From: Chloroflexota bacterium
Lineage (GTDB): Bacteria > Chloroflexota > Limnocylindria > P2-11E
Assembly (NCBI GenBank): GCA_005881885.1
Contig: VBDX01000128.1
Location: 27,809 to 91,808, forward strand
Direction of reading: 5' to 3'
DNA length: 64,000 bases
In this document: piece after piece, positions 10,032-29,102 of the stretch
Layout: the number at the start of each line of letters is the position of its first letter
Numbering within the stretch: the stretch's first letter is position 1
Translations under genes and position numbers: made by a program
Notes under the pieces: model-generated
Told to the model about the DNA's origin: nothing
Seen by the model: the letters and a program-made list of their open reading frames with translations, nothing else
Databases searched by the model: none

Positions 10032-10217
10032 CTACTCGCCGTCGAGCGTGTTACCGATGGTGAGCTCGCGCATCCAGTCCTCGAGCAGCCTGCCCATGCG
10101 ATCGATCGGTACTGGGGCGCTCTTCGACACGCGGCGGTAGCGCGGCGGTTCGGGAAGCGGCCGCGCCGCCCAGTGCCCCGCCTGTACGCGAGCGAGATCC
10201 TGAGCGGTCGCGGCCAT
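10032..10217 (-). CDS. 61-aa hypothetical protein directly downstream of glnA
   Basis: Strong SD (AGGAGGG) overlapping the glnA stop; fills the intergenic gap. Confidence 0.7.
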   Translation of the reverse strand: MAATAQDLARVQAGHWAARPLPEPPRYRRVSKSAPVPIDRMGRLLEDWMRELTIGNTLDGE

Positions 10218-10231
10218 CTTCTCGGTCCCTC

Positions 10232-11698
10232 CTAAACGTCCGAATACAGGTAGAACTCGTACGGGTGCGGACGGAGCGCGACTTCCTTCGCGCTGGCGCG
10301 CTTGATCGAGAGCCAGGCCTCGATGAGATCTTCGGTGAACACGTTCCCGCGCATGAGGAAGTCACGATCGGCGTCAAGCGCGTCGAGCACTTCTTCGAGC
10401 GAGCCCGGTGTTTGCTTCACACGCTTCTTCGCTTCGCCCTCGAGCTCGTAAAGGTCGACGTCCATCGGCGTTGGCGGCTCGATCCGGTTGATCACGCCGT
10501 CGAGACCGGCCATGAGGCAGGCCGAGAACGAGAGGTACGGGTTGCATGACGGATCGGGCGCGCGGAACTCGAGGCGGCGCGCCTCCGGCTTGTCGAAGTA
10601 CGTCGGGATGCGCACGCACGCGGAGCGGTTCCGCATCGAGTACACGAGGTTGATCGGCGCCTCGTACCCGGGGACGAGTCGGCGGTAGCTGTTTGTGGTC
10701 GGAGCGGCGAACGCGAGGATCGCCGGCGCGTGCTTCAAGAGTCCGCCGATGTAGTGACGCGCGGTCGTGGAGAGAAGTGCGTAGCCCTCCCGGTCGTAGA
10801 AAAGGTTCGATCCGTTCTTCCAGAGGCTCTGGTGCGTGTGCATCCCCGAGCCGTTGTCGCCGAAGAGCGGCTTGGGCATGAACGTGACGACGTAGCCGTT
10901 CTTCGCGGCAACGTTCTTGGTCACGTACTTGTACTTGAGGACCTTGTCCGCCATCTCCACGAGCGTGGAGAAGCGCATGTCGATCTCGGTCTGGCCGGCC
11001 GTGCCCACCTCGTGGTGGTGGACCTCGACGGCGATGCCCGCATCGATGAGCGCGCGGACCATCTTCGAGCGAAGGTCTTGGAGCTTGTCCGTCGGCGGGA
11101 CCGGGAAGTAGCCCTCCTTGTAGCGCGGCCGGTGCGCGAGGTTCGACACCCCGCCGTCCTTGCCGGAGTTCCAGATGCCTTCCTCGGAGTCGATGTAGTA
11201 GTAACCGCTGTTCTGGGTCTGATCGAAACGGACCGAGTTGAAGATGTAGAACTCGATCTCCGGTCCCCAGAACGACGTATCGGCGATGCCCGTGGTCGGG
11301 AGGAATTCCTCCGCCTTCTTCGCGACATACCGCGGGTCGCGCGAGTACGGCTTTCGGGTCAGTGGGTCGATGACATCGCAGGTGATGTTCAGTGTCTTGA
11401 TCTCGAGGACCGGATCGATGAAGACGGCGTTCGCGTCGGGCATGAGGAGCATGTCGCTCTCGTGAATGTGCTGGAAGCCGCGGATGGACGATCCGTCGAA
11501 CCCGATGCCGTCGGCGAAGAGGCCCTCCGAGAGCTCTTCGACCGGGATCGAGAAGTGCTGCTGCGTACCCGGCAGGTCGACGAAGCGCAGGTCGACGATC
11601 TTGACCTGCTGGTCCTTCGCGAGCTTGAGGATGTCTTTGGGCGAGGTCTTCGGTTGCGCGGGTGCCGCCGTCGCGGGCCGCTCCATCGTCAGCGTCAT
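10232..11698 (-). CDS. glnA: Glutamine synthetase type I
   Basis: [43 protein letters not shown], adenylylation-site-like DLYEL; start at the ATG after a GGGGAG SD. Confidence 0.97.
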
Positions 11699-11764
11699 CT
11701 GCAACTCCCCACGGGTTATGTCCGAACAAGCGTCTAGCCAGCGGTGTGCGAGGTGAACTGCCGG

Positions 11765-11788
11765 TTCGGTCGTGATTGGGTCGTGATT
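11765..11788 (-). promoter_or_regulatory. Tandem direct-repeat box (AATCACGACC x2, 11-bp period) upstream of glnA
   Basis: GGTCGTGATT at 11768-11777 and 11779-11788; shares CACGACCGAA with the amtB upstream region. Confidence 0.6.
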
Positions 11789-11827
11789 CAGTAGCGGAGG
11801 TCGCACTGGTTCCCGGCCGACCGTCAG

Positions 11828-11863
11828 TTGACACTTACGTAAGTCTATGCTTACGCTTCCCCC
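11828..11863 (+). promoter_or_regulatory. Sigma70-type leaderless promoter with palindromic operator for the ArsR gene
   Basis: TTGACA-N18-TACGCT-N6-ATG; perfect palindrome ACTTACGTAAGT at 11833-11844. Confidence 0.75.
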
Positions 11864-12199
11864 ATGGACGCCTTCGCCGCGCTCGGAGAACCGCGGCGGC
11901 GCGAGATCCTCCGACTCGTCTCCGCGGCCGAGCTCTCGGTCGGGGAGATCGCGCGCCGCTTCGAGGTCACCCGGCCGGCGATCTCACAGCACCTGCGTGT
12001 CCTGAAGGAGGCGGGCCTCGTGACCGAGCGCCGAAACGGCACGAAGCGCCTGTATCGCGCGCGCCCGGAGACCATCGCCGAGCTTCGCGCGTATCTCGAA
12101 GCGTTCTGGGACGACAGCCTCAGGTCTTTGAAAGCCGCCGCGGAGCAAGAGGAACAACAAAGGAGGACAAGGCATGGCCGTCGACACGAAAGTCATTGA
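11864..12199 (+). CDS. ArsR/SmtB family transcriptional regulator
   Basis: [37 protein letters not shown]. Confidence 0.92.
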
Positions 12200-12629
12200 G
12201 CGCGTCATCACGATCCAAGCGCCGCCCGAGACCGTATTTCGTCTCCTGACGGATCCGGTGCAGTACGTCCGCTGGAAGGGCAAGCTCGCCGAGCTCGAGC
12301 CCCGTCCGGGCGGCACGTTCCGAGTCGAATTCGCGAGCACCACGGACGTCGTCACTGGCAAGTTCGTCGAGGTCATCCCGGGACGGCGCGTCGTCTTCAC
12401 CTGGGGCTGGGAGGGGAGCGAGGTCGTGCCCGCCGGCGCGAGCACGGTCGAGATCGACCTCGAGCGCGAAGGAACCGGTACGCGACTGCGCCTCATCCAT
12501 CGCGGGCTTCCGGAGGGCGCGATCGCGAGCCACGCCGCGGGCTGGGACTACTTCCTGCCGCGCCTCGAGGACGTCGCCGAGGGGAGGCAACCGCGCGAAG
12601 CCGCACACCACACCGACGCCAACGAATAA
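12174..12629 (+). CDS. SRPBCC/AHSA1 domain protein
   Basis: APPETVFRLLTDP...RW, VFTWGW, GWDYFL; typical ArsR partner. Confidence 0.88.
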   Translation: MAVDTKVIERVITIQAPPETVFRLLTDPVQYVRWKGKLAELEPRPGGTFRVEFASTTDVVTGKFVEVIPGRRVVFTWGWEGSEVVPAGASTVEIDLEREGTGTRLRLIHRGLPEGAIASHAAGWDYFLPRLEDVAEGRQPREAAHHTDANE

Positions 12630-12646
12630 AGGGGAGGAATCACCAC

Positions 12647-12994
12647 ATGGGCGCGCCCATCACGCACGTCGAGATCAACACGAAGGAATCGAAGAAGCTC
12701 CAGGACTTCTACAGCAAGCTCTTCGATTGGCACATGGACACGAACAACCCGATGGGCTACGCGATGGTCGACACGCACGCCGGGAAGGGCATCGGCGCCG
12801 GGATCGGGCAGTCACAGAACGGCCGGAACTTCGTGACGTTCTACGTCGACGTCACCGATCTCGAAGGCACTCTGAAGAAGGCTGAAGGCCTCGGCGCGAA
12901 GACCGTGCTCAAGCCGACGCAGACCGGCCCGGTCACCGTCGCGATGTTCGCCGACCCCGAGGGCAACGTCATCGGACTCGCCAAGGGCATGTGA
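12647..12994 (+). CDS. VOC/glyoxalase family protein
   Basis: HVEI...FYSKLFDW, FYVDV.D, FADPEGNVIGL; GGAGG SD. Confidence 0.9.
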   Translation: MGAPITHVEINTKESKKLQDFYSKLFDWHMDTNNPMGYAMVDTHAGKGIGAGIGQSQNGRNFVTFYVDVTDLEGTLKKAEGLGAKTVLKPTQTGPVTVAMFADPEGNVIGLAKGM

Positions 12995-13066
12995 TCCGCT
13001 GAGGATGCGGGCCGCGGGAGCGTCGAGGCGCGCTCTCGCGGCCGTCGGTGGCACGAAACGGCCGAA

Positions 13067-13086
13067 ATCAGATTGTCTGATATGCT
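13067..13086 (+). promoter_or_regulatory. Inverted-repeat operator and -10 box of the vapBC locus
   Basis: ATCAGA-N3-TCTGAT overlapping TATGCT, 7 nt before the GTG start. Confidence 0.65.
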
Positions 13087-13093
13087 TGGCCGT

Positions 13094-13387
13094 GTGGCGA
13101 AACGGATCACCGCAACCGAGGCGTCGCGGAGCTTTTCGGAGATTCTCGACGCGGTGGAGCATCGAAGCGAGGAGTTCCTCGTCGAGCGGCACGGCAGACC
13201 CATAGCCGCGGTTACGCCCGCGCGCGGGGTGACGCCGACACGCGCGACGTGGGCCGATGTGCTTCGTCTCTTCCATGAGGGTCCGCAACCCGATCCAAGG
13301 TTCGCGCGTGACATGGCCCGCATCCTCCGATCGCGGCCGGCCATGCCGAAGGATCCGTGGGGACGATCCTCGACACGTCGGTCCTGA
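13094..13387 (+). CDS. Phd/YefM family antitoxin
   Basis: ITATEASRSFSEILDAVE...FLVERHGRPIA. Confidence 0.85.
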   Translation: MAKRITATEASRSFSEILDAVEHRSEEFLVERHGRPIAAVTPARGVTPTRATWADVLRLFHEGPQPDPRFARDMARILRSRPAMPKDPWGRSSTRRS

Positions 13388-13743
13388 TCGACATCGAGCG
13401 CGGCGCACGGGCGCTCGCGTCGGCTGAGGACGTCGCGATCGCCGCAATCACAGCGTCCGAGCTCCTTCAAGGAGTTCTGCGCGCTGACGATCAGCATCGG
13501 CTGCAACGGGAATCGTTCGTGGAAGGGATCCTCGCGACGGTCCCGACCATTCCGTTCTCATTGCGTATCGCCCGCGTACACGCCGAGCTTTGGGCACAGC
13601 AAATTGCGGCCGGCCGCAAGCTCGAGGCGCACGATCTGTTGGTGGCTTCAACCGCCGTCTCGCTCGGCTGGGACCTCGCGACTCTTAATCGGCGCCACTT
13701 CGCTGGCATCCGTGGCCTGCGGCTGACTCAGCATGGGGCGTAG
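13357..13743 (+). CDS. vapC: PIN-domain (VapC) toxin
   Basis: ILDTSVLI, ITASELLQG, HDLLVASTA, TLNRRHF. Confidence 0.88.
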   Translation: MGTILDTSVLIDIERGARALASAEDVAIAAITASELLQGVLRADDQHRLQRESFVEGILATVPTIPFSLRIARVHAELWAQQIAAGRKLEAHDLLVASTAVSLGWDLATLNRRHFAGIRGLRLTQHGA

Positions 13744-13767
13744 CAAGCTCACCGACTTCTCGACGGT

Positions 13768-13788
13768 CGCCACGACCGAATCGCAACC
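13768..13788 (+). promoter_or_regulatory. Direct-repeat box upstream of amtB matching the glnA box
   Basis: cgcCACGACC-g-AATCgCaACC, 11-bp period; 7/10 and 8/10 matches to AATCACGACC. Confidence 0.5.
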
Positions 13789-13843
13789 TTCGTAGCGCCC
13801 ATCCGTCGCTGACCGGGGCATGCCGGTCGCTCAGGCTTCCGGC

Positions 13844-15067
13844 ATGGACAAGATCAACGCTGGCGACACCGCCTGGCTTCTCGCGTCGGCCGCGCTCGTC
13901 ATGCTCATGACCCCGGCGCTCGGGTTCTTCTACGGCGGCCTCGTCCGGCGGAAGAACGTCCTCGCGACGATTATGCACAGCTTCTTCATCCTCTGCCTCA
14001 TCAGCGTGCAGTGGGTCCTCTGGGGCTACACGCTCGCGTTCGGTCCGGATATCGGTGGGATCATCGGCGGCCTCGACTGGGCGGCGCTCAGAGGCGTCGG
14101 CCAGGACCCGGGTCCGTACGCGCCGACCGTCCCGCACGAGGCGTACATGGTCTTCCAGATGATGTTCGCGGTCATCACGCCGGCGCTCATCACCGGGGCA
14201 TTCGCCGAGCGCAAGCGCTTCAAGGCCTTCGTCGTCTTCACGCTGCTCTGGGCGACCTTCGTCTACGACCCGGTCGCGCACTGGGTCTGGGGCGGTGGTT
14301 GGCTCGGTCAGCTCGGCGCGCTCGACTTCGCCGGCGGCACGGTGGTGCACATCACGAGCGGCGTCTCGGCGCTCGTCGCCGCACTTGTCCTCGGCCGTCG
14401 CGTCGGCTTCGGCCGCGAGGCCATGGACCCCCACGACGCGACCATGACCGTCCTCGGCGCGTCACTCCTCTGGTTCGGTTGGTTCGGATTCAACGCCGGG
14501 AGCGCGATCACCGCGGGCGGTCTCGCGGCGAACGCGTTCGTCGTGACGAATACCGCGGCGGCGATGGCCGCGCTCACCTGGATGACGGTCTCGTGGCTCC
14601 ACAAGGGCGCGCCGAGCGTGCTCGGTGCCGCGGCCGGCGCGGTCGCAGGGCTTGTGGCGATCACCCCGGCATCGGGCTATGTCGATGTCTCAGCGTCGAT
14701 CCTCATCGGCCTCGGCGCGGGCATCTTCTGCTACACCGCGATCCAGATCACCAAGCGCTTCAAGGTCGACGACGCGCTCGACGTGTTCGGGGTCCACGGC
14801 GTCGGCGGGGCCTGGGGCGCGCTCGCGACGGGCGTCTTCGCAACCGTCGCGGTGAACAGCGCGGCGAAGGACGGGCTCCTCGCCGGCAACCCCGGGCAGC
14901 TAGGGATCCAGGCGATCGCGGTGCTCGCGTCCATCGCGTACTCGGCGGTCATGACGTTCGTGATCCTGAAGCTCATCGACCTCTTCGTCGGACTGCGCGT
15001 GCCCGAGAGCGAGGAAGTGCTCGGTCTCGACGCGTCGCAACACCGCGAAGCGGCGTACCAGATCTAA
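13844..15067 (+). CDS. amtB: Ammonium transporter
   Basis: GDTAW, LGFFYGGLVR.KN, DFAGGTVVH, WFGWFGFNAGS, DDALDVFGVHG. Confidence 0.97.
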   Translation: MDKINAGDTAWLLASAALVMLMTPALGFFYGGLVRRKNVLATIMHSFFILCLISVQWVLWGYTLAFGPDIGGIIGGLDWAALRGVGQDPGPYAPTVPHEAYMVFQMMFAVITPALITGAFAERKRFKAFVVFTLLWATFVYDPVAHWVWGGGWLGQLGALDFAGGTVVHITSGVSALVAALVLGRRVGFGREAMDPHDATMTVLGASLLWFGWFGFNAGSAITAGGLAANAFVVTNTAAAMAALTWMTVSWLHKGAPSVLGAAAGAVAGLVAITPASGYVDVSASILIGLGAGIFCYTAIQITKRFKVDDALDVFGVHGVGGAWGALATGVFATVAVNSAAKDGLLAGNPGQLGIQAIAVLASIAYSAVMTFVILKLIDLFVGLRVPESEEVLGLDASQHREAAYQI

Positions 15068-15079
15068 AGGAGGGCTCCG

Positions 15080-15190
15080 ATGGAGTTCCTGGCATTCGCA
15101 TCCTTCGCGATCCTGGTGGTCGGTTGGCTCGTGGCTCCGTCGAAGACGGTCACCCCGGTCAGCCACGCGGAGGAGCGCAAAGCGGCATAA
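15080..15190 (+). CDS. 36-aa single-TM small protein after amtB
   Basis: AAGGAGG SD; MEFLAFASFAILVVGWLVAPSKTVTPVSHAEERKAA; absent from the ORF track. Confidence 0.75.
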   Translation: MEFLAFASFAILVVGWLVAPSKTVTPVSHAEERKAA

Positions 15191-15216
15191 GCGCCGCGAC
15201 CCATATTTGGTCGACT

Positions 15217-15250
15217 GAGGACCAGGCTCCGCGAGGGGCTTGGTCCTCTT
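15217..15250 (+). terminator. Hairpin ending the amtB-small ORF transcript
   Basis: GAGGACCAGGCTCC/GGGGCTTGGTCCTC stem with a short T run. Confidence 0.6.
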
Positions 15251-15293
15251 CGTGTCCAGCGCTCGGCGTACACTCGAACGCGTACAACTGAAT

Positions 15294-15386
15294 ACGACGG
15301 GGGAGCGCCCGACGAAAGGGGCGCTGAGAGTGCGGATAGCCGCAGACCCCAGAACCTGATCTGAGTAATGTCAGCGTAGGGAGTCG
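15294..15386 (+). ncRNA. TPP riboswitch
   Basis: GGGAG..GCTGAGA...ACCC..GAACCTGATC..TAATG..AGCGTAGGGA consensus, upstream of thiamine genes. Confidence 0.95.
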
Positions 15387-15406
15387 AGAGGCGTGAAACC
15401 ACCTAC

Positions 15407-15436
15407 GAGCGGCGCTCAGGGCGCCGCTTTTGTTTT
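15407..15436 (+). terminator. Riboswitch expression-platform intrinsic terminator
   Basis: GAGCGGCGC-tcagg-GCGCCGCTT followed by TTGTTTT. Confidence 0.8.
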
Positions 15437-15464
15437 GCCGGGGTCCAGTCGGGGGTCGAAACCC

Positions 15465-15488
15465 GGGGGACGGGGGGCAGAGCCCCCC
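15465..15488. repeat. GC-rich palindromic REP-like element
   Basis: GGGGGACGGGGGGCAGAGCCCCCC; related copies at 3162-3185 and 58990-59013. Confidence 0.55.
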
Positions 15489-15494
15489 GCTCGC

Positions 15495-16142
15495 ATGACG
15501 GCGGTCGTGGTCGCGCACGGCGACGTTCTACCTTCGGATCGCGCTGCGATCGATGACAAGGACCTCGTGGTCGCGGCGGACGGCGGCGCCCTCGTCCTCG
15601 AGCGCTGGAAGATCCTTCCCCATCTGGTCGTGGGCGACATGGACTCGCTCGGCGACGCGGGCGTGGAGCGCCTCGCGCGGCAGGGCATCGGCGTCGCGAA
15701 GTTCCCCGCGGCGAAAGACGAGTCCGATCTCGAGCTCGCCGTCGCGCACGCCATCGCGGCGGGAGCGAAGGAGATCGTCCTCCTCGGCGCGCTCGGGGGT
15801 CCGCGCCTCGACCACGAGACCGCGAACCTGCTGCTCCTCGCCGATCCGGGGTACGACGGCGTTCAGATCGAGGCACGACGCGGCGCGATGCGCGTCCGGG
15901 CGCTGCGCGGCGCCGGATCGCTCACGCTCGAGGGTCCGGTGGGCACCCTCGTCACGCTGCTGCCCGTGGCAGGCGACGCGGAGGGGGTGCGAACCGAAGG
16001 GCTCCGCTATCCCCTCGCAAGCGAGACGCTCCGACTGGGCAAGTCCCGCGGCCTGAGCAACGAGATCGCGGCGTCGCCGGCGAAGGTCTCGCTCGACATC
16101 GGAACGCTTCTTGTTTTCGAGACCCCACCGGGAGGTGCATGA
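15495..16142 (+). CDS. thiN: Thiamine diphosphokinase
   Basis: AADGGA, VGDMDS, KDESDLELA, GALGGPRLDH, GLRYPL, RGLSNE. Confidence 0.93.
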   Translation: MTAVVVAHGDVLPSDRAAIDDKDLVVAADGGALVLERWKILPHLVVGDMDSLGDAGVERLARQGIGVAKFPAAKDESDLELAVAHAIAAGAKEIVLLGALGGPRLDHETANLLLLADPGYDGVQIEARRGAMRVRALRGAGSLTLEGPVGTLVTLLPVAGDAEGVRTEGLRYPLASETLRLGKSRGLSNEIAASPAKVSLDIGTLLVFETPPGGA

Positions 16143-16143
16143 C

Positions 16144-16758
16144 GTGACGCAAGTGCGAACCGAGTCCCAGGACACGCAAGCCGAAGCGCCGCCATTCTTC
16201 GGCGCGCGCATCTCGCTCCATCCGATGACCGACCGCTACGGGCCGGTGATCCTCGAGGCGATCGAAGGTCTCCGGGACACCGGGCTCGAGGTTGAGACCG
16301 ACGACGTGAGCACGTTCATCGGCGGCGACCGCAACCGTGTCTTCCGCGAGCTCGAGCGCATATTCGCCACTGCCGCGCGGACCGGCGAGCACGTCGTCAT
16401 GACCGTTCTTCTCTCCCATGGCTGCCCCGGCGAGACGTACTGCGAAGCGACCGGAGAAGTACGCATGCCCGGGCCGACGAAGGCGAGCCCAGGCAAGAGC
16501 GGTGTCGACGTGAGCGCGCAGTGGTCGCTCTACCCGCTCGGCAGCGAGGGTTACATGCAGGTCATCTACCGCGAGATCGACCGTACGAAGACGGCCGGCG
16601 TGTTTGCGAAGGGCGCGCACTTCGTCTCCACGCTGCATGGCGACCTGGCCGACGTGCTGGGCGCGATCCGCACGTCCTTCGACGCAGCGTGCGCGGACAC
16701 CGGGCACGTCGTCGCACACGCCACCTTGTCCGCGAACAGTCCCTCTGGGAGGTCGTGA
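16144..16758 (+). CDS. ykoF: YkoF-type thiamine/HMP-binding protein
   Basis: Duplicated SLHPM/SLYPL domains, HVV..TLSANSPS; TPP operon context. Confidence 0.85.
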   Translation: MTQVRTESQDTQAEAPPFFGARISLHPMTDRYGPVILEAIEGLRDTGLEVETDDVSTFIGGDRNRVFRELERIFATAARTGEHVVMTVLLSHGCPGETYCEATGEVRMPGPTKASPGKSGVDVSAQWSLYPLGSEGYMQVIYREIDRTKTAGVFAKGAHFVSTLHGDLADVLGAIRTSFDAACADTGHVVAHATLSANSPSGRS

Positions 16759-16759
16759 C

Positions 16760-17869
16760 ATGCGCAGCTTCTCCATCGCCCGCGCGGTCGCGCTCGTGGG
16801 CGCGCTCGTCGCGCTCATCGCGTTCTTCCTGCCCTGGGTCATCTACGCCCGGCAGAGCTTCAGCGGCGCCGAGCTCGCGAGCACGCTCTCGCCGGCGCTC
16901 GCTTCGGTCAAGGGCGGCGGGATCAAAGGGCTCGACCTGGGCCTCTGGGCGGTCGCGCTCGCGGCGGCGCTCGCGGCGGTCTTCGTGCTCGTCTCGTGGG
17001 CGCGTGCAGCGGATCCGACCGAGGGCCGCTACCGACTCTGGGCCGCGGCCGCGGCGATCACGGGCCTCGCCTTCGGGATGCTGTTTCTGGCGAGCGGTCT
17101 GCTGGGCGGGACGCCGGATATCAACTTCGCGCCCGCCGCGATCCGCACCGACAACGCGGTGAAGGCCACGGTCGCGAAGGCGATCGGCGCGGGCGATTTC
17201 GTCGGCATCGGCGTCGGTGTGTATCTGGCGATCGTCGGCTTCGCAGCGGCCGCGATCGGCGCGATCCTCGCGCGCCCGGCGCGTGACGAGCGCGTCTGGC
17301 GAACGCAGGACTACGTGCTCCTGGCGATCCTCGCGGTCGTGTTCGGGGCGATCTACTGGGCCTGGCTCGGCCCCTACCTGGGCATCGAGACGATCCTCGC
17401 CGGCGTCAGCGCGCAGTTCGGACAGGAGCTCCTCTTCGGGCTCTGGTTCGTCAGCGGTCTGCTCGGTGGATACATCATTCGCCGGCCCGGCGCCGCGTTC
17501 CTCTCCGAGACGCTCGCCGCATTCGCCGAGGTGCTCCTTGGCGCGCCGGCGGGCCCCGTGCTCATCGTCACCGGCTTCATGCAGGCGCTCGGTCCCGAGC
17601 TCACGTTCGCCGCGACCGGCTACCGGCGCTGGGGCTGGGGCACGATGGCCGTCGCGGGCATCGCGGCCGGCGTCGTCGCGCTCCCCTGGAATTGGCTGCG
17701 CCTCGGTTACTTCGCCCTCGACCCGGGCGTCATGGCCGGACTCTTCATCACCCGCGTCGTCGCCGGCGCGCTCGCCGGACTGGCGGCGAAGGCGATCGGC
17801 GATCTCGTGGCGGCGACCGGCTCGCTCAACTACTTCGCGCTGGGCCGGGAGCGAGTGCAGGAAGTGTGA
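16760..17869 (+). CDS. ECF transporter S component (YkoE-like) with extra N-terminal membrane domain
   Basis: C-terminal WRTQDYVLLAILAVVFG...GLWF...IRRPGAAF..ETLAA..E; about 175-aa hydrophobic N-terminal extension. Confidence 0.85.
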   Translation: MRSFSIARAVALVGALVALIAFFLPWVIYARQSFSGAELASTLSPALASVKGGGIKGLDLGLWAVALAAALAAVFVLVSWARAADPTEGRYRLWAAAAAITGLAFGMLFLASGLLGGTPDINFAPAAIRTDNAVKATVAKAIGAGDFVGIGVGVYLAIVGFAAAAIGAILARPARDERVWRTQDYVLLAILAVVFGAIYWAWLGPYLGIETILAGVSAQFGQELLFGLWFVSGLLGGYIIRRPGAAFLSETLAAFAEVLLGAPAGPVLIVTGFMQALGPELTFAATGYRRWGWGTMAVAGIAAGVVALPWNWLRLGYFALDPGVMAGLFITRVVAGALAGLAAKAIGDLVAATGSLNYFALGRERVQEV

Positions 17870-19527
17870 CCTCCGCGTTCGCGCGCGCCGAGTCGCTCAC
17901 CATCCGTCACGTGGGGCGGAAGCGGCCGGCGCTCCGCGACCTGGATTTCGCATGGGAGGAGGGCGAGCGGCTCCTCCTGCTCGGCCCGAGCGGTGCCGGG
18001 AAGAGCACGCTCGCGCTCTGCCTGGATGGGGTAATCCCGCACGCGCTCGATGCGCACTGGGAGAGTGGGCGCCTGACCGTGAATGGCCGCGACACGCGCA
18101 GCGCATCGCTCGCCGAGCTCACGCAGGAGGTGGGCGTCCTCTTCCAGGACCCCGAGACCCAGCTCGTGATGCTCGAGACCGACGACGAGATCGCCTTCGG
18201 GCTCGAAAACCTCGGCCTACCGCGGGACGAGATGGCCGAGCGCATCGTGGAAGCTCGCGCGTCCACCGGCCTCGGGCCCGCGACACCGCGACGGCTTGAT
18301 GCCCTCTCCGGCGGGACGAAGCAACGCGTGGCCCTCGCCTCGCTTTTGGCCATGCGGCCTCGAGCGCTCGTGCTCGACGAGCCGACGGCGAATCTGGATC
18401 CGATCGGCGCGCGCGAGGTCATCACCGCGGTCGCCGCGCTCGCTATTCGGCGCGAGCGCTCGTTCCTTGTGGTCGAGCACCGCCTCGACCCGCTCCTCCG
18501 ATTCATCGATCGAGTCGCGGTGCTCGGGGACGACGGCAGGCTCGCGCTCGCCGGCGATCCCGAAACGGTGTTCATGCGACGCGCCGACGAGCTCGATCGA
18601 CTCGGGGTCTGGCAGCCCGAACTCGCCGAGCTCGCTCGACTCCTAGGCGCGGAGGAGATGCCAGGCGACGTCGACGAGGCTGCGGACCTCCTCATCGATC
18701 GGTGGCCGCGCGGCGCTTCGGCCCCGCGCGAGGCACACGTGCCTGGACGGATCACCGTCGCCGCGCGCGGCGTGGCGCACCGTTACCGCGGAGACGACCG
18801 TGATGCGGTGACTGGTGCGTCGCTCGAGCTGCACGAAGCCGAGATCTCCGCGATCGTCGGCGCCAACGGCGCGGGGAAGAGCACGCTCGGCCTGCTCCTC
18901 GCCGGTGTATTACGTCCTTCGCGTGGGATGGTCGACGCGACCGCCGACGTCGCGTATGTCTTCCAGTATCCCGAACGTGGCTTCCTTGCAGCAACCGTCC
19001 GCGGTGAGATGCGCTACGCCGCTACCACCGGCCGCCAGATCGCGCGCGATCCAGATGTCCTTCTCGAGCGCTTCGGCCTAGCGCGTCTCGCGGAAGCGAA
19101 TCCGCACTCGCTCTCGCACGGCGAGAAACGGCGGCTGTCCGTCGCGAGCGCTCTCGTCACCAGCCCGGCCGTGCTGATCCTCGACGAGCCGACGTTCGGC
19201 CAGGACCTTCGGAACACGCGCGAACTCATGACGATCCTGCGCGAGGAACGCGACCGCGGGACGACGGTCGTTCTCATCACGCACGACCTCTCGCTCGTCG
19301 CCGAGCTTGCCGACCGCGCCGTTGCGATGTCCGAGGGCAGGATCGGCTTCGACGGGACGCCCGCGGAGCTCTTCGCGCGCGCGGATCTTGCGAGGTTCGG
19401 GCTGGCGCTGCCTCCTGTGGCCGACGCGTTCGCGCGCGCCGGAGCGCGAGACAGCTCGATCTCGCCGGTCACCGGGCTTGGCGCGGCACGCGAAGCGCTC
19501 GCCTCGCGGGAGCTGGTGCGCCTGTGA
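17866..19527 (+). CDS. ECF transporter duplicated ATPase (YkoD-like)
   Basis: Two Walker A motifs (GPSGAGKST, GANGAGKST), LSGG/LSHG signatures, LDEPT; GTGA overlap. Confidence 0.92.
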   Translation: MTSAFARAESLTIRHVGRKRPALRDLDFAWEEGERLLLLGPSGAGKSTLALCLDGVIPHALDAHWESGRLTVNGRDTRSASLAELTQEVGVLFQDPETQLVMLETDDEIAFGLENLGLPRDEMAERIVEARASTGLGPATPRRLDALSGGTKQRVALASLLAMRPRALVLDEPTANLDPIGAREVITAVAALAIRRERSFLVVEHRLDPLLRFIDRVAVLGDDGRLALAGDPETVFMRRADELDRLGVWQPELAELARLLGAEEMPGDVDEAADLLIDRWPRGASAPREAHVPGRITVAARGVAHRYRGDDRDAVTGASLELHEAEISAIVGANGAGKSTLGLLLAGVLRPSRGMVDATADVAYVFQYPERGFLAATVRGEMRYAATTGRQIARDPDVLLERFGLARLAEANPHSLSHGEKRRLSVASALVTSPAVLILDEPTFGQDLRNTRELMTILREERDRGTTVVLITHDLSLVAELADRAVAMSEGRIGFDGTPAELFARADLARFGLALPPVADAFARAGARDSSISPVTGLGAAREALASRELVRL

Positions 19528-20300
19528 ACGTACTCGCGCGTCGCGATCCGGCGGTGAAGCTCGCGGTGACGCTGGCGATCTCGCTCGTTCTGCTCTTCGT
19601 CATCGACCCCGTCACCCCGCTACTCTTCCTCGCCGTCGCGATCGCCGCAGCGGTCGCGGGAGGTGCCCGCCTGAGCACGATCGTCCGCGCTCTCGTGCCG
19701 CTCTCGGTACTTGGCATTGGCTTCGTGTGGAGCAACGCGGTGTTCGCCGCGACGCACGAGCCCCCAACGTGGACCATCGGGCCCTTTCACGCGACCGAGG
19801 CCGGTCTGCGCTTCGGGCTGGCCATCGCGCTCCGGGGTCTCGCGATCGGAATGCTGTCACTCGCGTTCGTATGGACGACCGATCCGACCGATCTCGTGGT
19901 GAGCCTCATCCGCCACGCGCATCTTCCGTTTCGGATCGGCTATCCGTTGCTCGCCGGCTACCGCTTCCTGCCGTTCTTCGCCGACGAGTACGCGCAGGTC
20001 CGCATCGCGCGACGAGTGCGCGGGTCGGTCGCGCGCGGTCCGTTCGGCCGCATCCGCGAGGCGACCGGAGAGCTGGTCACGCTCCTGTCGGACGCGACCC
20101 GGCGCGCGACTCGGATCGCGATCGCCATGGACGCCCGCGCGTTCGCCGGTGCGCGGGAGCGCACCTACTGGCGCGAGGCGCCCCTCACACTCGGCGATCT
20201 CGTCTTCGTGATCGTGGCGATCGGTTTCGTGGCGGGGCTCCTCGCGTTCTCAGGCGCGATGGGCTGGCTCCGCCTGTGGGACGGGCACTTCTCGGCCTAG
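19524..20300 (+). CDS. ECF transporter T component (YkoC-like)
   Basis: DPAVKL, WTTDP, ARRVRG and AMDARAF motifs. Confidence 0.9.
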   Translation: MNVLARRDPAVKLAVTLAISLVLLFVIDPVTPLLFLAVAIAAAVAGGARLSTIVRALVPLSVLGIGFVWSNAVFAATHEPPTWTIGPFHATEAGLRFGLAIALRGLAIGMLSLAFVWTTDPTDLVVSLIRHAHLPFRIGYPLLAGYRFLPFFADEYAQVRIARRVRGSVARGPFGRIREATGELVTLLSDATRRATRIAIAMDARAFAGARERTYWREAPLTLGDLVFVIVAIGFVAGLLAFSGAMGWLRLWDGHFSA

Positions 20301-20332
20301 AGGACCAGATCGCAGCGCCGCTCGCGTCATTG

Positions 20333-20584
20333 TCAGCGGTAGACATCCTTGCGGTGTCTCACCACGTGGAGGTGGACTTCTCGTGCCCCCACGTCGTAGC
20401 GGATCCGGTAGTCGCCGACCCTCCAGCGCCATCGCCCGATCCGGGGACCGTGCAGCTTGCGACCGCGATAAGGGTCGGCACGCAGGCGGGCCAGCGCCTT
20501 TAGGACTTGTTCTTGGATCGGCCTTGGGAGCTTGCGGAAGTCGCTCTCGAATACCTTCGAGGGGATGATCTCGAAGGTCGGCAG
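20333..20584 (-). CDS. relE: RelE/ParE family toxin with CTG start
   Basis: (L/M)PTFEIIPSKVFESDFRKLP...PYRGRKLHG...RWRVGDYRIRYDV...HVVRHRKDVYR, 83 aa; GGAG 7 nt before the CTG; missed by the ORF track. Confidence 0.85.
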   Translation of the reverse strand: MPTFEIIPSKVFESDFRKLPRPIQEQVLKALARLRADPYRGRKLHGPRIGRWRWRVGDYRIRYDVGAREVHLHVVRHRKDVYR

Positions 20585-20878
20585 CTAGCGGCTCCGGTAA
20601 ATCGCTCGCAGCGCTGCGAGACTGCTCACCTCGCCGCGCCGGATCTGCGCCGCTGACGTCCGAAGGGCCTTCTTCAGCGCGGGATCGCGCTCCTCCGCCC
20701 GAAGCTCAAGGAGCTCTTCGTACTCGCCGAGCGGCACCAGTGCTACTTTCGGAAGGCCCTTCTTCGTAAGGACAAAGCTCTGACCCTGCTCGCTGGCAAG
20801 ACGGATGAGCCGACCTAGGTGTGTGCGAGCGGTGAACGCATTCACGATCGTCGGTGCCTTGGGTGCCTTCGCCGCCAT
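20585..20878 (-). CDS. Phd/YefM family antitoxin
   Basis: VNAFTARTHLGRLI...FVLTKKGLPKVALVPLGEYEEL; AAGGAG SD; palindrome AACTAGTT at 20917-20924 next to a TAGGCT -10. Confidence 0.85.
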   Translation of the reverse strand: MAAKAPKAPTIVNAFTARTHLGRLIRLASEQGQSFVLTKKGLPKVALVPLGEYEELLELRAEERDPALKKALRTSAAQIRRGEVSSLAALRAIYRSR

Positions 20879-21027
20879 CGCAACTCCTTTTTCCAGCGCC
20901 AGCCGCAGCCTATCTTAACTAGTTGAAATCGAAGGGGGGAAGCGGATGCTGGTGGTTACCGCGGCGGAGCTATTTTCCATTTTTGCTAATCGACCCAGAA
21001 AAGGCCGGGCTGTATGTTGCGCTGTAT

Positions 21028-21270
21028 ATGCCAGCAATACGCACGCAGGTCTATCTGACAAAGGAACAGCGCCAGAAGCTCGATTCGCGACGCCGGCGTG
21101 AGCATAAGACGCTGGCGGCGGTGGTTCGCGACGCCATCGATGCCTACGTCAGCAAGGAGAAACCAGCAGACGTGCGGAAGACCCTCGACGAGACCTTCGG
21201 GGTAGCCCCAAAGTTCAGCGTTCCATCTCGCGACGAGTGGGGGCAGTATGCCCGGCGCGTCCGAACGTAA
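21028..21270 (+). CDS. CopG/ribbon-helix-helix antitoxin
   Basis: RTQVYLT.EQ...L......TLAAVVRDAIDAY; GCTGTAT direct repeats upstream. Confidence 0.8.
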   Translation: MPAIRTQVYLTKEQRQKLDSRRRREHKTLAAVVRDAIDAYVSKEKPADVRKTLDETFGVAPKFSVPSRDEWGQYARRVRT

Positions 21271-21400
21271 CGTCCTTCTCGACACCGACGTCTTCGTCGA
21301 CCACGTGCGCGGAGCGCCCGGGGTTCCCGGTCCGCCAAAAGCGCCGAGGTTTGAGGCGGCTTTTCGACCGTTGGAGAGGGGAGTAGTCCGCCGAAAGTAG
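21248..21400 (+). pseudogene. Truncated PIN/VapC toxin
   Basis: Overlapping ATG; VLLDTDVFVDHVRG PIN start, then unrelated sequence and a stop after 50 aa. Confidence 0.7.
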
Positions 21401-21518
21401 GCACCGATCGGAGTCGGTTCATCTGCTTCATTTCCCAACGTGCCACAAGTCGCCAAGCCGAGCTCGGTTGTTCGCGTCGATCTCCCATCACGTTGTAGTG
21501 CCACCATTCGGTGTTCCC

Positions 21519-21955
21519 GATCACGGGCGCCGAGCGCCTCGTCCACCCGCGCCCCCGGGGACGCCAGAGAGTGCCCCGAGATGCTGCGTGACGTTACGGG
21601 CGTAGCCACGGGGAATGAGCCCCCGTGGCCAGGGCGAATGCGACGACGGTCACGAAGAGAAGGCCAAGTGCGATGAAGATCGCAGACGCGACGTAGGCGA
21701 AGAGCCGCACGAGCTCGGCGGGATAGTCGCGTGAGATCGAGGCGAACGCGATGACCGCCACGACCAGCCAACCAATCGAGATACAGATCGAGAGCGCACG
21801 TATGAATCGCAGCCAACTGGCCGCGCCGTAGGGCCACCGGTACTGCGGGGTCGTCAGGTTTCGCATCTGCCCCGCCAGATGCGGGGCAGGAGCGCGGTCA
21901 CTGCGAGCGCCCCGATCGCGAGAATGACGGCTGACACGATCGCAGCCGTGCTCAT
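21519..21955 (-). pseudogene. Frameshifted small membrane protein
   Basis: MSTAAIVSAVILAIGALAVTALLPRIWRG continues in another frame as QMRNLTTPQYRWPYG...two TMs; possible second shift near the C-terminus. Confidence 0.45.
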
Positions 21956-21989
21956 TACTGCCTTCCGGCGGGAGCCGCTGTGGCACTCC

Positions 21990-22367
21990 TCACTTCGGAC
22001 AGTCGAGCTTGCCGTCCACGATCACGACACGACGGTTCAGGCCGTGCAACTCCTCGTAGCTATAGCTGTGACAGAAGACGAGGCGACCGGCGTCGTCGTT
22101 GGCGCGTAGCGTGACGGGCGAACTGTCCTTGAAGTGCCAAGCCGTGACGCGCTCCTCGCCCGCCGCCAAGTGCGTCACGAGATCTCGCCCGCTGTCCTCG
22201 CCTATCTCCGTCAGAGTGAGTCGAATCGAGGTGTCGTTTCTGATGCGAACGTCCGTGCCAGGATCTCCGACACGCGGAGGCGGACCTGTGAGAACACATG
22301 CGCTCAATGTGAGCGCCACGACCAGATACGCGAGTCCGCGCAACAAGGTCAACGACCGATCGACCAT
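21990..22367 (-). CDS. Hypothetical lipoprotein
   Basis: Lipobox LSAC; beta-rich domain with a Cys pair. Confidence 0.65.
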   Translation of the reverse strand: MVDRSLTLLRGLAYLVVALTLSACVLTGPPPRVGDPGTDVRIRNDTSIRLTLTEIGEDSGRDLVTHLAAGEERVTAWHFKDSSPVTLRANDDAGRLVFCHSYSYEELHGLNRRVVIVDGKLDCPK

Positions 22368-22529
22368 GGATACTGCCAGCCTTCCGGAGCTGCACCATTC
22401 GGCGACGAGGGCACCGCGGACGCTCCCCCGCTTTCTCGACAGCTATCGTTCCCGACCGAACGTGGCGCTGGGCGGCCACACCCGGATGTGTCGCTTCCTC
22501 GGCGTCAACGACGTGTCTGGGGATCACAC

Positions 22530-23198
22530 CTAACCGAGCCGGTATCCGACTCCGCGCACGTTCGCGAGCGGGGGCGCGCCCGCTGAATCGAGCTTCGAGC
22601 GAAGCCGCGCGAGATGCGCCTTGAGCCACTCCGGGTCGGGGTCGCGCTCCTCCGGCCAGCCCGCGCGAAGCAACGCGCGGCGCTCCAGGACTTCACCCGG
22701 CCGCGCGGCGAGCGCCGCGAGGAGACGGAACTCCGTCGGGGTGAGGTCGAGGGACTGACCATCGACGCTCGCGACGTGCGTCTTCGGATCCACACGCAGC
22801 CGCCCGATCGAAGCGGCGCTCTGCGCGCGCGCCGCCGGACCCGCACGCCGGAGAAGCGCGCGCACGCGCGAGGCGAGCTCCCTCCGGCTGAAAGGCTTCT
22901 CGAGATAGTCGTCCGCGCCGAGGTCGAGCAGCTTCGCGCGCTCCTCGGCACCGCGCTCCCCGGTCAGCATGAGGATCGGCGTCTGCGCCGACGCGCGGAT
23001 CCGTCTGCAGACCTCGTCGCCGGAGAGTCTCGGCAGCTTGCGGTCGAGGATCACGAGATCGGGCGAATCTTCGGCGTGACGGCGTAACGCGGTCTCACCG
23101 TCGTACGCGGTGACGATCTCGTAGCCCTCCTCGCCGAGGAGAGCGGCGACCATGCCGACGAACTGGCGATCGTCGTCGACGACGAGGATGTTGCTCAA
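22530..23198 (-). CDS. OmpR/PhoB family response regulator
   Basis: ILVVDDD, LVILD, GADDYLEKPF; winged helix LTPTEFRLL...NVRGVGY. Confidence 0.93.
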   Translation of the reverse strand: MSNILVVDDDRQFVGMVAALLGEEGYEIVTAYDGETALRRHAEDSPDLVILDRKLPRLSGDEVCRRIRASAQTPILMLTGERGAEERAKLLDLGADDYLEKPFSRRELASRVRALLRRAGPAARAQSAASIGRLRVDPKTHVASVDGQSLDLTPTEFRLLAALAARPGEVLERRALLRAGWPEERDPDPEWLKAHLARLRSKLDSAGAPPLANVRGVGYRLG

Positions 23199-24853
23199 CG
23201 CGTCGCGGACGCCGTGCCCGCGCGCGCCAGCGGGAGCGTGAAGGCGAAGACCGCGCCCCCGCCCGGCGCATCCTCGAGCCAGAGATCACCGCCTTGGCCC
23301 TCGACGACTCGACGCGCGGCGAAGAGGCCGATGCCCGATCCGGCAATGTCGTCGTGGGCGACGCCGCGTGCGTACGGCTCGAAGATGCGTGCGCGGTCCT
23401 GCGGCGGCACTCCGGGCCCTTCGTCCCGCACGCGCACGATCGCGCGGTCGTCGGCGCCCTCGATGCGCACCGCGATGCGTGTCCCCTCGGGCGCGTACTT
23501 CGTCGCGTTGTGTACGAGGCCGGCGACGACCTCCGCCGTGCGGCGCTTGTCGCCGCGGACGAACAGCGGCTGGCCGGCACGCGGACCGGTCAGCTTGTGG
23601 CGCCGCGCCATCGGCGCGACCTCTTTCAGGGCGACGGCGACCGTTGCGCGCAGATCGAAGCGCGCGCGGCGCAGCGAAAGCTCCGGACGATCGGTGCGAA
23701 CGCCGGCGAGGATGCGGTCGACGAGATGATCGAGACGCTCGACCTGCGCCGTCGCCTCCGAGACCGGCAGCTTCGTCTTCTTCATCCCGTTCTTGTCAGC
23801 GAGGAGCTCGAGGTAGCCGCGGATGACCGAGAGCGGTGTCCGCAGATCGTGCGTGACGACGGCGACGAAGTCGGCGCGCGCGCGCTCGAGCTCGCGTAGG
23901 CTCTCGGTGGTTTTGCGCTCGAGCGCGTAGAGCGACGCCTTGTCGATCGCGAGCGCGGCCTGATTGGCGAGCGCGCCGACGAAGCGGACCTCCTCCTCGA
24001 GAAACTCCTTGTAGTCGGGCACCTGCAATACCACCGCGCCGAGGAGCCGGTCGTTCGCTATGAGCGGCATCGCGATGTGATCGAACGCGACGATCGGCCG
24101 GCGCTCGGCGATCGCACGGTGGGCGGCGTGCGTCGCGGTGCGCTGCAGCTCACCCGAGCGCGAGCGCTCGCGGTCCTCGCCCTCCTCGCGGAGGAGGATC
24201 GCGCCCGACGCGCCAGGGTAGACGCGCACCAAGCGGTCGACGACCAGGGAGAGCACCTCGTCGAGATCGAGCGTCGATGTCAACACATTGGAGACCTCGA
24301 AGAGTGCGGAGACCTCACGGAGCTTGCGATCCGACTCGCGCTGGAGACGACCCTTCTCGATGATCCCGGCGACCTGGTTCGCGATCGTCTGCAGGAAGTC
24401 GATCTCTTCGCGCCCGAAATCGCGCGGCTCGACGGTCTGCACGTTCATCACCCCGATGACTTCGTCGCGCGCGACGACCGGGACTGAGAGCATCGACACA
24501 AAGCGCTTCTCGTCCACCTCCGGGACCCACTTCCAGCGCGGCTCGGCGCGCACATCACGTGCGGCGAGAGGCACGCGCGCGTTCGCGACCCACCCGACGA
24601 TGCCCTCGCCGAGTCTCAGCGCGGCGCGTCCGATGCCTCCGCGATTCAGTCCATTCGTCGCGACGAGCCGCAACACGCCTTCGGGTTTCTCGAGGAGATA
24701 CAGAGATGACACTTCGGCGCCCATCGCGTCGGTGGTGCGGCCGATAACGATGCGGAGCATCTCGTCCCAGTCCCGCGCGGAGGCGGCGAGCTGGGTGACC
24801 TCGTGAAGGAACGAGAGCTCACGAAGCTTTCGCTCCGGATCGGATGCGGTCAT
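23195..24853 (-). CDS. Two-GAF sensor histidine kinase
   Basis: GAF1 resembles the PtsP GAF; THDLRTPL H-box, NATKY, DEGPG, GSGIGL; no TM segments. Confidence 0.92.
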   Translation of the reverse strand: MTASDPERKLRELSFLHEVTQLAASARDWDEMLRIVIGRTTDAMGAEVSSLYLLEKPEGVLRLVATNGLNRGGIGRAALRLGEGIVGWVANARVPLAARDVRAEPRWKWVPEVDEKRFVSMLSVPVVARDEVIGVMNVQTVEPRDFGREEIDFLQTIANQVAGIIEKGRLQRESDRKLREVSALFEVSNVLTSTLDLDEVLSLVVDRLVRVYPGASGAILLREEGEDRERSRSGELQRTATHAAHRAIAERRPIVAFDHIAMPLIANDRLLGAVVLQVPDYKEFLEEEVRFVGALANQAALAIDKASLYALERKTTESLRELERARADFVAVVTHDLRTPLSVIRGYLELLADKNGMKKTKLPVSEATAQVERLDHLVDRILAGVRTDRPELSLRRARFDLRATVAVALKEVAPMARRHKLTGPRAGQPLFVRGDKRRTAEVVAGLVHNATKYAPEGTRIAVRIEGADDRAIVRVRDEGPGVPPQDRARIFEPYARGVAHDDIAGSGIGLFAARRVVEGQGGDLWLEDAPGGGAVFAFTLPLARAGTASATR

Positions 24854-28590: not shown

Positions 28591-28624
28591 CCAGCAGAGG
28601 TAACGGCATCCAGCGCGCCGTGTT

Positions 28625-29095: not shown

Positions 29096-29102
29096 CGCGC
29101 TC

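Follow-up and report, generated by a model that had tools for sequence, protein, structure and literature searches.

The stretch analyzed here (the window) is 64,000 nucleotides long and comes from a soil Chloroflexota bacterium of the class Limnocylindria (GenBank assembly GCA_005881885.1, contig VBDX01000128.1, positions 27,809 to 91,808; G000:C232:27809-91808 in our in-house labels, where G0xx and G1xx are genomes, G000 is the window's genome, and f1 to f5 are families of the window's class). The assembly comprises 3.36 Mb in 234 contigs and is 91.8% complete, and the base composition of the window is 66 to 70% G+C. We focused on a sensor histidine kinase and an OmpR/PhoB-type response regulator (together referred to as the pair) and on the nearby glnA and amtB genes, each of which is preceded by a tandem box (Table 1). 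An earlier reading of this DNA, made from the letters alone, had proposed that the pair senses nitrogen status directly and controls glnA and amtB. We followed up this sequence-only reading with a class sample of 41 genomes, 22 of them at least 90% complete, and a phylum sample of 151 Chloroflexota genomes with a completeness of at least 85%. The class sample includes G010 and G021, which are flagged as unpublished, and no claim hangs on these two alone. For the synteny comparison, up to 20 kb on either side of the pair were fetched, and the window's proteins were mapped onto these flanks.

Table 1. Features of the window discussed in the text, in order of position.
Feature	Position	Strand	Basis
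glnA, type I glutamine synthetase	10232..11698 (open reading frame to 11806)	-	TIGR00653, 650 bits vs cut-off 429; start 11698 probable, inferred from alignment and orthologues
Tandem box upstream of glnA, two overlapping registers	11765..11797	-	Tandem Repeats Finder (TRF); 18.4 and 16.7 bits
amtB tandem box (GnnAC-n6), with its end 29 nt upstream of the ATG at 13820	13770..13791	+	Matrix scan, 24.4 bits
amtB, ammonium transporter, alternative start 13845	13820..15067	+	Pfam; TIGR00836, 477 bits vs cut-off 343
OmpR/PhoB-type response regulator, 222 aa, TTG start	22530..23198	-	Pfam Response_reg and Trans_reg_C
Soluble sensor histidine kinase, 552 aa: GAF1, GAF2, HisKA, HATPase_c	23195..24853	-	Pfam and translation
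GAF1, residues 14-184, PtsP/EI-Ntr-type, proposed nitrogen-status sensor	24302..24814	-	NF008283, PDB matches
GAF2, about residues 190-310 (approximate bounds), not PtsP-like	23924..24286	-	Pfam
Kinase core: HisKA 325-383 including the H-box His; HATPase_c 434-543	23225..23881	-	Pfam and translation

The kinase is of the class I HisKA type (PF00512, 51 bits; PF02518, 87 bits; H-box histidine present), and no long hydrophobic stretch was seen when its translation was read by eye, no transmembrane predictor being run. The domains and coordinates quoted for it in the sequence-only reading were confirmed, every quoted peptide string is present in its translation, and the claimed likeness of GAF1 to the GAF domain of PtsP (EI-Ntr) held up in profile searches. 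GAF1 alone scored 109 bits with the NCBIfam PtsP model versus 45 bits for NifA, GAF2 alone matched neither, and the whole kinase scored 123 bits with the PtsP model NF008283, over model positions 3 to 174. When compared with all solved structures, GAF1 had as its top three matches 3trc and 3ci6, which are PtsP GAF domains according to their listed names, and 3e0y (E of about 1e-23); the E values for 3trc and 3ci6 were 1e-23 and 3e-22, with the next match at only 3e-8. As a control, the PtsP model was run over the whole genome of the window, where GAF1 reached 108 bits, no other GAF scored above 39 bits, and no true PtsP was found. An alignment of 15 GAF1 homologues contains 20 invariant columns, several of which are also conserved in the alignment of the solved PtsP GAF domains. 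By this comparison, GAF1 belongs to the PtsP-type GAF subfamily.

The protein as a whole is not a PtsP, because its 123 bits lie below the model's cut-off of 583 and Pfam finds no phosphoenolpyruvate (PEP)-utilizing enzyme domain. It was also rejected as a KdpD (NF007793, 120 bits versus a cut-off of 1123); given that this cut-off is missed and that the match is confined to GAF2 and the kinase core, the "KdpD" names from one source are misnomers. Orthologues of the kinase are 84 to 97% identical within the genus, 67 to 71% within the family, and 60 to 61% within the order. Matches at an E value of at most 1e-40 occur in 31 of the 41 class genomes (f1, 22/24; f2, 2/2; f3, 6/6; f4, 0/7; f5, 0/1), with full-length orthologues in f1 and f2 and a single-GAF form in f3, from which GAF2 is missing and in which the matches resume at query residue 260. 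Elsewhere in the window's genome, a single open frame of about 2286 codons (G000:C104:600-6900) encodes at least 10 GAF repeats followed by a kinase core.

The TTG start of the regulator overlaps the kinase stop by 4 bp, and its two domains are readily recognized (PF00072, 99 bits; PF00486, 70 bits), so the coupling of the kinase to an OmpR-type regulator was read correctly from the letters. Its receiver is canonical, with the acidic pocket D8-D10, D52, T79, and K101 read from the translation. The best solved relatives of the whole regulator are RegX3, MtrA, PrrA, and PhoP, and no GlnR entry is among its 39 whole-protein structure matches at an E value of at most 1e-20; with the DNA-binding domain alone, the 59 matches are led by MtrA, and GlnR appears at ranks 6 (8HIH) and 9 (8HML). 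The DNA-binding region is conserved across f1 to f3 (the alignment row L049:8223-8951, a miscalled reading frame, was disregarded), and orthologue-level regulator matches (at least 49% identity) track the distribution of the kinase.

Three known identities were considered for the regulator and rejected. MtrA (NF040689) is its best NCBIfam match, with 188 bits under a cut-off of 300; an NtrC would carry a Sigma54_activat domain, which is absent; and a GlnR orthologue is at odds with the co-transcribed kinase, the canonical receiver, and the absence of GlnR from the best whole-protein matches. This leaves intact the earlier claim that the pair is distinct from NtrBC and GlnR, to which the failure to find PII, described below, also speaks.

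The repeats of 11-bp period that had been noted upstream of glnA and amtB both exist. At glnA, TRF reports an exact 11-bp unit in 1.9 copies at 11768-11788; the amtB repeat consists of two imperfect units at about 13770-13791, which TRF does not report and which were spotted by eye, by Gibbs sampling, and by the matrix scan. A 21-bp tandem alone is unremarkable, TRF having given 13 small arrays in 16 kb; the two repeats are beyond chance because they are conserved in orthologous promoters and rank high genome-wide. An unseeded Gibbs sampler, given 12 upstream regions of 7 genomes, recovered one motif shared by most of them, which aligns as two to four GnnAC pentamers with 6-nt spacers and lies upstream of amtB, glnA, and gltB. 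The two genes proposed as the regulon therefore do carry a shared box, and gltB, which is boxed as well, had been missed.

A 22-bp matrix derived from 10 sites was evaluated on promoters outside its training set, with the best score in each of 2000 random 600-nt pieces of the window's genome as the null (99%, 11.8 bits; 99.9%, 14.1 bits). Ten of the 15 nontraining promoters from genomes with the pair exceeded the 99.9% level, and 2 more exceeded the 99% level. In bits, the scores in genomes with the pair were, for amtB, 19.3 (G031), 18.4 (G029), 19.6 (G013), 13.4 and 12.0 (G039), and 5.5 (G037); for glnA, 19.6 (G025), 24.5 (G026), 10.1 (G013), and 4.9 (G037); and for gltB, 19.7 (G025), 14.6 (G026), 18.5 (G024), 19.1 (G017), and 15.2 (G000). 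In f4 genomes that lack the pair, none of five promoters of amtB or glnA was above the 99.9% level (amtB, 2.9 in G038 and 2.4 in G040; glnA, 3.3 in G034, 9.3 in G032, and 4.6 in G028), and the same holds for two amtB paralogues of 48% identity (1.4 and 6.6). G164, an f4 genome that does have the pair, carries a 19.9-bit site in the intergenic region beside gltB. With a matrix made from 17 sites outside the window's genus, the amtB site ranked 1st (21.2 bits), the gltB site 3rd (17.7), and the glnA site 7th (16.4) among the 6.7 million positions of the window's genome, and 1st, 3rd, and 4th, respectively, among the intergenic hits, a test that is not fully independent because the 17 sites had been found with a matrix including the window's two. 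A scan with a 12-nt core was uninformative (9 exact and 269 one-mismatch matches). Taken as sequence evidence, these comparisons make it very probable that the box is the operator of a nitrogen regulon.

One alternative concerns the promoter of glnA, which at least could be driven by sigma-54 and the single REC-AAA+-HTH_8 activator of the genome, which is NtrC-like, the tandem repeat then being incidental. The genome does encode sigma-54 and one full NtrC-type activator, and, in the interval from the glnA box to the start codon, there is a sigma-54-like element that is kept in G017. However, this element has 3 mismatches to the scanned consensus and falls outside the 2-mismatch list, with perfect sites present elsewhere in the genome; the activator lies away from nitrogen genes, with no kinase next to it; and the regions upstream of amtB and gltB show no sigma-54-like element on reading. 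As a second genus, represented by G025 and G026, also keeps the glnA box (scores above), we regard this alternative as highly improbable and retain the box as the probable operator.

Some further occurrences of the box were recorded. Autoregulation of the pair was considered and rejected, as boxes near it were found, among nine genomes, only in G027 (14.8 bits, toward the kinase) and G031 (14.4 bits, toward PEP carboxylase). In both genomes, the PEP carboxylase gene (L051 10583-13843 in G031; L052 6439-9384 in G027) is divergent from the pair with the box in between, which could tie the regulon to the anaplerotic supply of carbon skeletons. The second-best box genome-wide (G000:C228:837-858, minus strand, 18.7 bits, also second among intergenic sites) lies 35 nt upstream of the gene for a 140-residue stand-alone receiver protein (L121 380-802, minus strand). 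In three genomes of genus g13, a box of 17.6 to 21.3 bits is located about 150 nt past the amtB stop in the orientation of amtB (L047 12460-12481, minus; L048 1051-1072, plus; L046 19446-19467, minus); no open reading frame of at least 30 codons was found behind it in G035, and the site could belong to a similarly controlled small RNA or very short gene. Several f2 and f3 promoters have a short recurring element located 20 to 60 nt past the box; in the window, it is found just upstream of the glnA box. The spacing of a -10 element past the box was too heterogeneous to call.

The distances of 8 to 12 kb given in the sequence-only reading between the pair and glnA and amtB were about right, with 7.5 kb from the regulator end to the amtB stop and 10.8 kb to the glnA start. 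Proximity in one window is a weak argument on its own, and we compared the gene neighborhood across the class. The predicted co-occurrence was found: amtB, gltB, or glnA lies within 10 kb of the pair at 16 of 17 loci, covering 10 of 11 genera, and far more tightly in sister genera than in the window itself. In the window's genus (G005, G016, G017, and G020), amtB is 6 to 8 kb from the regulator. In G023, kinase, regulator, gltB, and amtB are contiguous and codirectional; in G024, gltB starts 261 bp past the regulator; in G022, a single strand carries kinase, regulator, two small genes, gltB, amtB, and glnA; G026 has gltB, amtB, regulator, and kinase inside 14 kb; and in G025, amtB is at 4.3 kb. 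The f3 loci differ again. G035 has argG, kinase, regulator, then two amtB genes 570 bp from the regulator end, and argH; G037 and G039 have argG, kinase, regulator, cyd genes, and amtB; G029 has amtB, a paralogous regulator (42% identical, its best match in the window's genome being the window's regulator), gltB, three genes, regulator, and kinase; G031 has amtB at 8 kb and the PEP carboxylase gene divergent from the kinase; and G027 has PEP carboxylase only. In G164, the sole f4 genome with the pair, the order is argH, argG, kinase, regulator, and gltB. Since close relatives inherit their gene order, the weight rests on the arrangements that differ between families.

These arrangements bear on which protein binds the box. 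The window's regulator is favored because it belongs to a repeat-binding family, has a canonical receiver and a DNA-binding region conserved across f1 to f3, and is distributed like the kinase, and also because its gene abuts a boxed gltB in two genera and a paralogue lies between amtB and gltB in G029. A different reading would keep the box as a real operator but assign it to another OmpR-family orphan that resembles GlnR, with the pair controlling, e.g., the divergent ABC-2 exporter, whose start is 30 bp from the kinase start on the opposite strand; on this view, gene order retained by descent would account for the nitrogen genes near the pair. In favor of this reading are that no kinase is encoded within 3 kb of 8 of the genome's 18 Trans_reg_C proteins, that actinobacterial GlnR is such an orphan with very similar boxes (PMC10704036), that the exporter adjoins the kinase throughout f1, and that most kinase promoters lack the box. 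However, two atypical orphans of the eight, when compared with solved structures, match PrrA or MtrA best and not GlnR. In f2 and f3, it is the nitrogen genes and not the exporter that are adjacent to the kinase, and the boxed gltB starts directly after the regulator gene in G023 and G024. Moreover, genomes without the pair show no box, and the only f4 genome with the pair has one. We consider binding by another orphan unlikely and the window's regulator, on this comparative evidence, the probable binder of the box.

The plausibility of a direct nitrogen sensor was examined from the side of the known nitrogen-control proteins. PII (PF00543) was not found in any of the 41 class genomes, in a search that was positive in 13 of 14 well-known genomes used as a control, nor were GlnD and GlnE found in the window's genome or glnK behind amtB. 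Because of these absences, a kinase that senses nitrogen status by itself is plausible. Across the phylum sample, PII was found in 50 of 151 genomes and not found in 101, and many of the PII-negative genomes carry amtB; a GAF1-like domain is present in 65 genomes, and no clean complementarity between PII and the GAF kinase was seen.

To relate GAF1 to its relatives outside the class, we examined 11 loci in other Chloroflexota classes whose GAF domains are 38 to 52% identical to GAF1 (44 to 52% at 10 of the 11). Their architectures vary: five are fusions of GAF, GGDEF_2, and HTH_30 (PucR-type one-component proteins), four are GAF kinases, one is a GAF-GGDEF-EAL protein, and one is a GAF alone. 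At 8 of these 11 loci, glnA, amtB, or gltB lies within 10 kb; in G093, GAF-PucR, glnA, amtB, and PII genes are consecutive, and in G067, glnA is 1.5 kb from the GAF1-like gene. The PucR fusions, whose GAF domains are 47 to 49% identical to GAF1 (L090 6087-8177, L091 8467-10254, L094 10103-11932, L096 9833-11680, and L097 8849-10642), adjoin glnA, amtB, or amino acid permease genes or lie within about 5 kb of them, and by sequence and context they are candidate one-component nitrogen regulators. The Limnocylindria box was not found in the glnA promoters of these loci, as expected if the DNA-binding part differs.

For the ligand of GAF1, the nearest guide is EI-Ntr, whose GAF domain is reported to bind glutamine, inhibiting autophosphorylation, in Caulobacter, Sinorhizobium, and Escherichia coli; a glutamine-blind L83Q change of EI-Ntr sits in a highly conserved region of that domain (both PMC4848567). 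By this analogy, we lean slightly toward GAF1 reading glutamine or 2-oxoglutarate. It might instead be that the pair regulates amtB, glnA, and gltB while GAF1 binds another ligand, such as an amino acid, a nucleotide, or a redox cofactor, or only dimerizes, its likeness to the PtsP GAF reflecting shared descent and not a shared ligand. Ligands can differ within one GAF subfamily, the solved PtsP GAF entries that were matched carry names and no ligand information, and GAF1-like modules occur in many architectures across the phylum. Yet the closest relatives in other classes lie near glnA or amtB at 8 of 11 loci whatever their output domain, which fits a nitrogen signal, and the stretch around the GEG motif, over which GAF1 can be aligned to the solved PtsP GAF, is kept by every one of the 15 homologues, two of its glycines being invariant. 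Binding of another ligand, or dimerization only, seems to us distinctly unlikely, and a nitrogen-sensing GAF1 is the reading that we carry forward.

As far as sequence comparison reaches, the interpretation of the pair as a nitrogen-sensing system is supported, and we give a modest preference to the full mechanism, in which the pair would act as a cytoplasmic two-component system that controls amtB, glnA, and gltB by direct nitrogen sensing. In this scheme, the PtsP-type GAF1 would read the intracellular nitrogen status, with glutamine as the likeliest ligand, perhaps together with 2-oxoglutarate, as suggested by EI-Ntr. The ligand state would set the autophosphorylation of the HisKA/HATPase core, and the phosphoryl group would pass to Asp52 of the co-transcribed regulator, the domains and the operon being those observed in the window. 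Dimers of the regulator would then bind head to tail to the two to four GnnAC pentamers with 11-bp spacing that the genome comparison revealed upstream of the regulon. Transcription would probably be activated at nitrogen limitation, as PhoB and GlnR do, and the system would thereby take the role held elsewhere by PII together with NtrBC or by GlnR.

Several observations weigh against this interpretation. On the side of the box, some promoters score low despite the presence of the pair (G037 amtB and glnA and G013 glnA, scores above), in 7 of the 9 genomes checked the kinase gene lacks an upstream box, and the 17-site ranking is not free of the window's own sites. A first matrix (8 sites, 24 bp, made without the window's sites) gave less than 11 bits for the window's amtB and glnA sites and placed gltB about 10th among intergenic positions, with ABC ATPase, ArsR, GMP transferase, PDH E1, and M20 peptidase genes among its other top matches; it was superseded by the 22-bp matrix from more sites. 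On the side of the gene order, 7.5 kb of unrelated genes (thiamin pyrophosphokinase, ECF transporter, and toxin-antitoxin) part the pair from amtB in the window. Within the window's genus, gltB is not near the pair: in G005 the distance is 290 kb, and in the window's genome the gene is on another contig (C221), where its box lies about 150 nt upstream. Because the whole region is syntenic among close relatives, the many loci are not independent, and few evolutionary events underlie the association of the box with the pair. On the side of the sensor, 10 sampled GAF1-like proteins of the phylum at 32 to 42% identity were nine GAF-GAF-HisKA_2 kinases and one GAF-GAF-PucR protein, with no true PtsP among them; the lack of PII is common in the phylum and not peculiar to the class; and three genomes hold PII and a GAF1-type regulator together. 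The window's genome itself has eight OmpR-type regulators without a neighboring kinase as well as sigma-54 with one REC-AAA+ activator. Finally, we infer both the link between regulator and box and that between GAF1 and its ligand from sequence comparison.

The genes between the pair and the two nitrogen genes encode an ArsR-family regulator, an SRPBCC protein, VapBC, thiamin pyrophosphokinase, an ECF transporter, and a Phd-like antitoxin, all of them unrelated to nitrogen. The genes for the ArsR-family regulator and the SRPBCC/Aha1-like protein (11864-12629) are divergent from glnA, and the glnA box lies in the shared 165-bp intergenic region. A VapB/VapC pair (13073-13743) is inserted directly upstream of the amtB box, an arrangement found in G017 and absent from G005 and G016. 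The Phd-like antitoxin gene (20585-20878) is located between the ECF transporter and the regulator, within a stretch of low G+C content at third codon positions (20300-22530) that looks like variable, inserted DNA. On the other side of the pair, a 773-residue protein with Beta-lactamase2 and Ig-like domains (26914-29235, minus strand) is encoded beside the ABC-2 exporter throughout f1 and f2. At an E value of at most 1e-60, several congeneric genomes, among them G005 (92% complete), gave no orthologue of the window's glnA, and neither did G023; glutamine synthetases of other families are only 42 to 48% identical to it; this type I glnA may be accessory. RNA contigs with short exact matches on glnA and amtB, from four soil metatranscriptome runs of one study, were not used as evidence, because only contigs were available, start sites were not given, and DNA carry-over is possible.

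Textbook nitrogen control is built on PII with NtrBC, GlnR, TnrA, NtcA, or AmtR. The proposed system shares with NtrB-NtrC, PII, and GlnD a two-component control of glnA and amtB by nitrogen status; NtrB, however, senses through PII, and NtrC is a sigma-54 AAA+ activator, whereas here a GAF sensor is part of the kinase itself and the regulator is an OmpR protein of the winged-helix type. It has in common with EI-Ntr an N-terminal GAF of the same subfamily and differs in that the kinase lacks the PEP-utilizing domain and its output would be a His-Asp relay to a DNA-binding regulator, in place of NPr and EIIA-Ntr. Actinobacterial MtrA is the regulator's best NCBIfam match and heads the solved relatives of its DNA-binding domain, but the regulator scores under the MtrA cut-off, lies in a different gene context, and is not partnered with the membrane kinase MtrB; binding of MtrA to GlnR boxes and repression of nitrogen genes by it have been reported (PMC9151340 and the reference list of PMC10704036). 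GnfK/GnfR of Geobacter was considered and set aside as a different system, since GnfK has no sensor domain and GnfR binds RNA (PMC2995071).

The closest parallel is the GlnR regulon. In both cases, a regulator belonging to the OmpR family is the presumed master of amtB, glnA, and gltB in high-GC Terrabacteria, and the boxes agree in that two to four 5-nt units follow one another head to tail with 6-nt spacers between them, each unit having A as its fourth and C as its fifth nucleotide. GlnR boxes take the forms GTnAC-n6-GTnAC and gTnAc-n6-GaAAc (PMC10704036, PMC10235972), with a key A at position 4 (PMC10704036), and GlnR activates RNA polymerase through four protomers arranged head to tail on such sites (PMC10235972). 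GlnR, however, has an atypical receiver, and neither a kinase nor a signal is known for this orphan, whereas the system proposed here combines a canonical receiver with a co-transcribed kinase that has a metabolite-type sensor.

Chloroflexota are an abundant phylum of soil and freshwater, and to our knowledge no nitrogen regulator is known for them; in the literature we found no description of such a GAF-kinase/OmpR nitrogen system or of a nitrogen regulator in this phylum. What stands out is a class that has amtB, glnA, and gltB and in which PII was not found, together with a sensor domain of EI-Ntr carried by the kinase itself, a GlnR-like operator alongside a candidate cognate kinase, and one sensor module reused with other outputs beside glnA. 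This raises the possibility, which we put forward only tentatively, of a master circuit of PII-less Chloroflexota in which a GAF module reading glutamine or 2-oxoglutarate would replace PII and NtrB and would be wired through a kinase to an OmpR-type regulator in Limnocylindria and directly to PucR-type DNA-binding domains near glnA in other classes. With a defined operator and small, soluble proteins, ligand binding, phosphotransfer, and DNA binding are accessible to direct in vitro assays that need no culture of the organism. Given that the operator resembles the actinobacterial GlnR box, the system, if the proposed mechanism is true, could serve as a working model of "GlnR with its sensor" and would bear on the signal that reaches GlnR.

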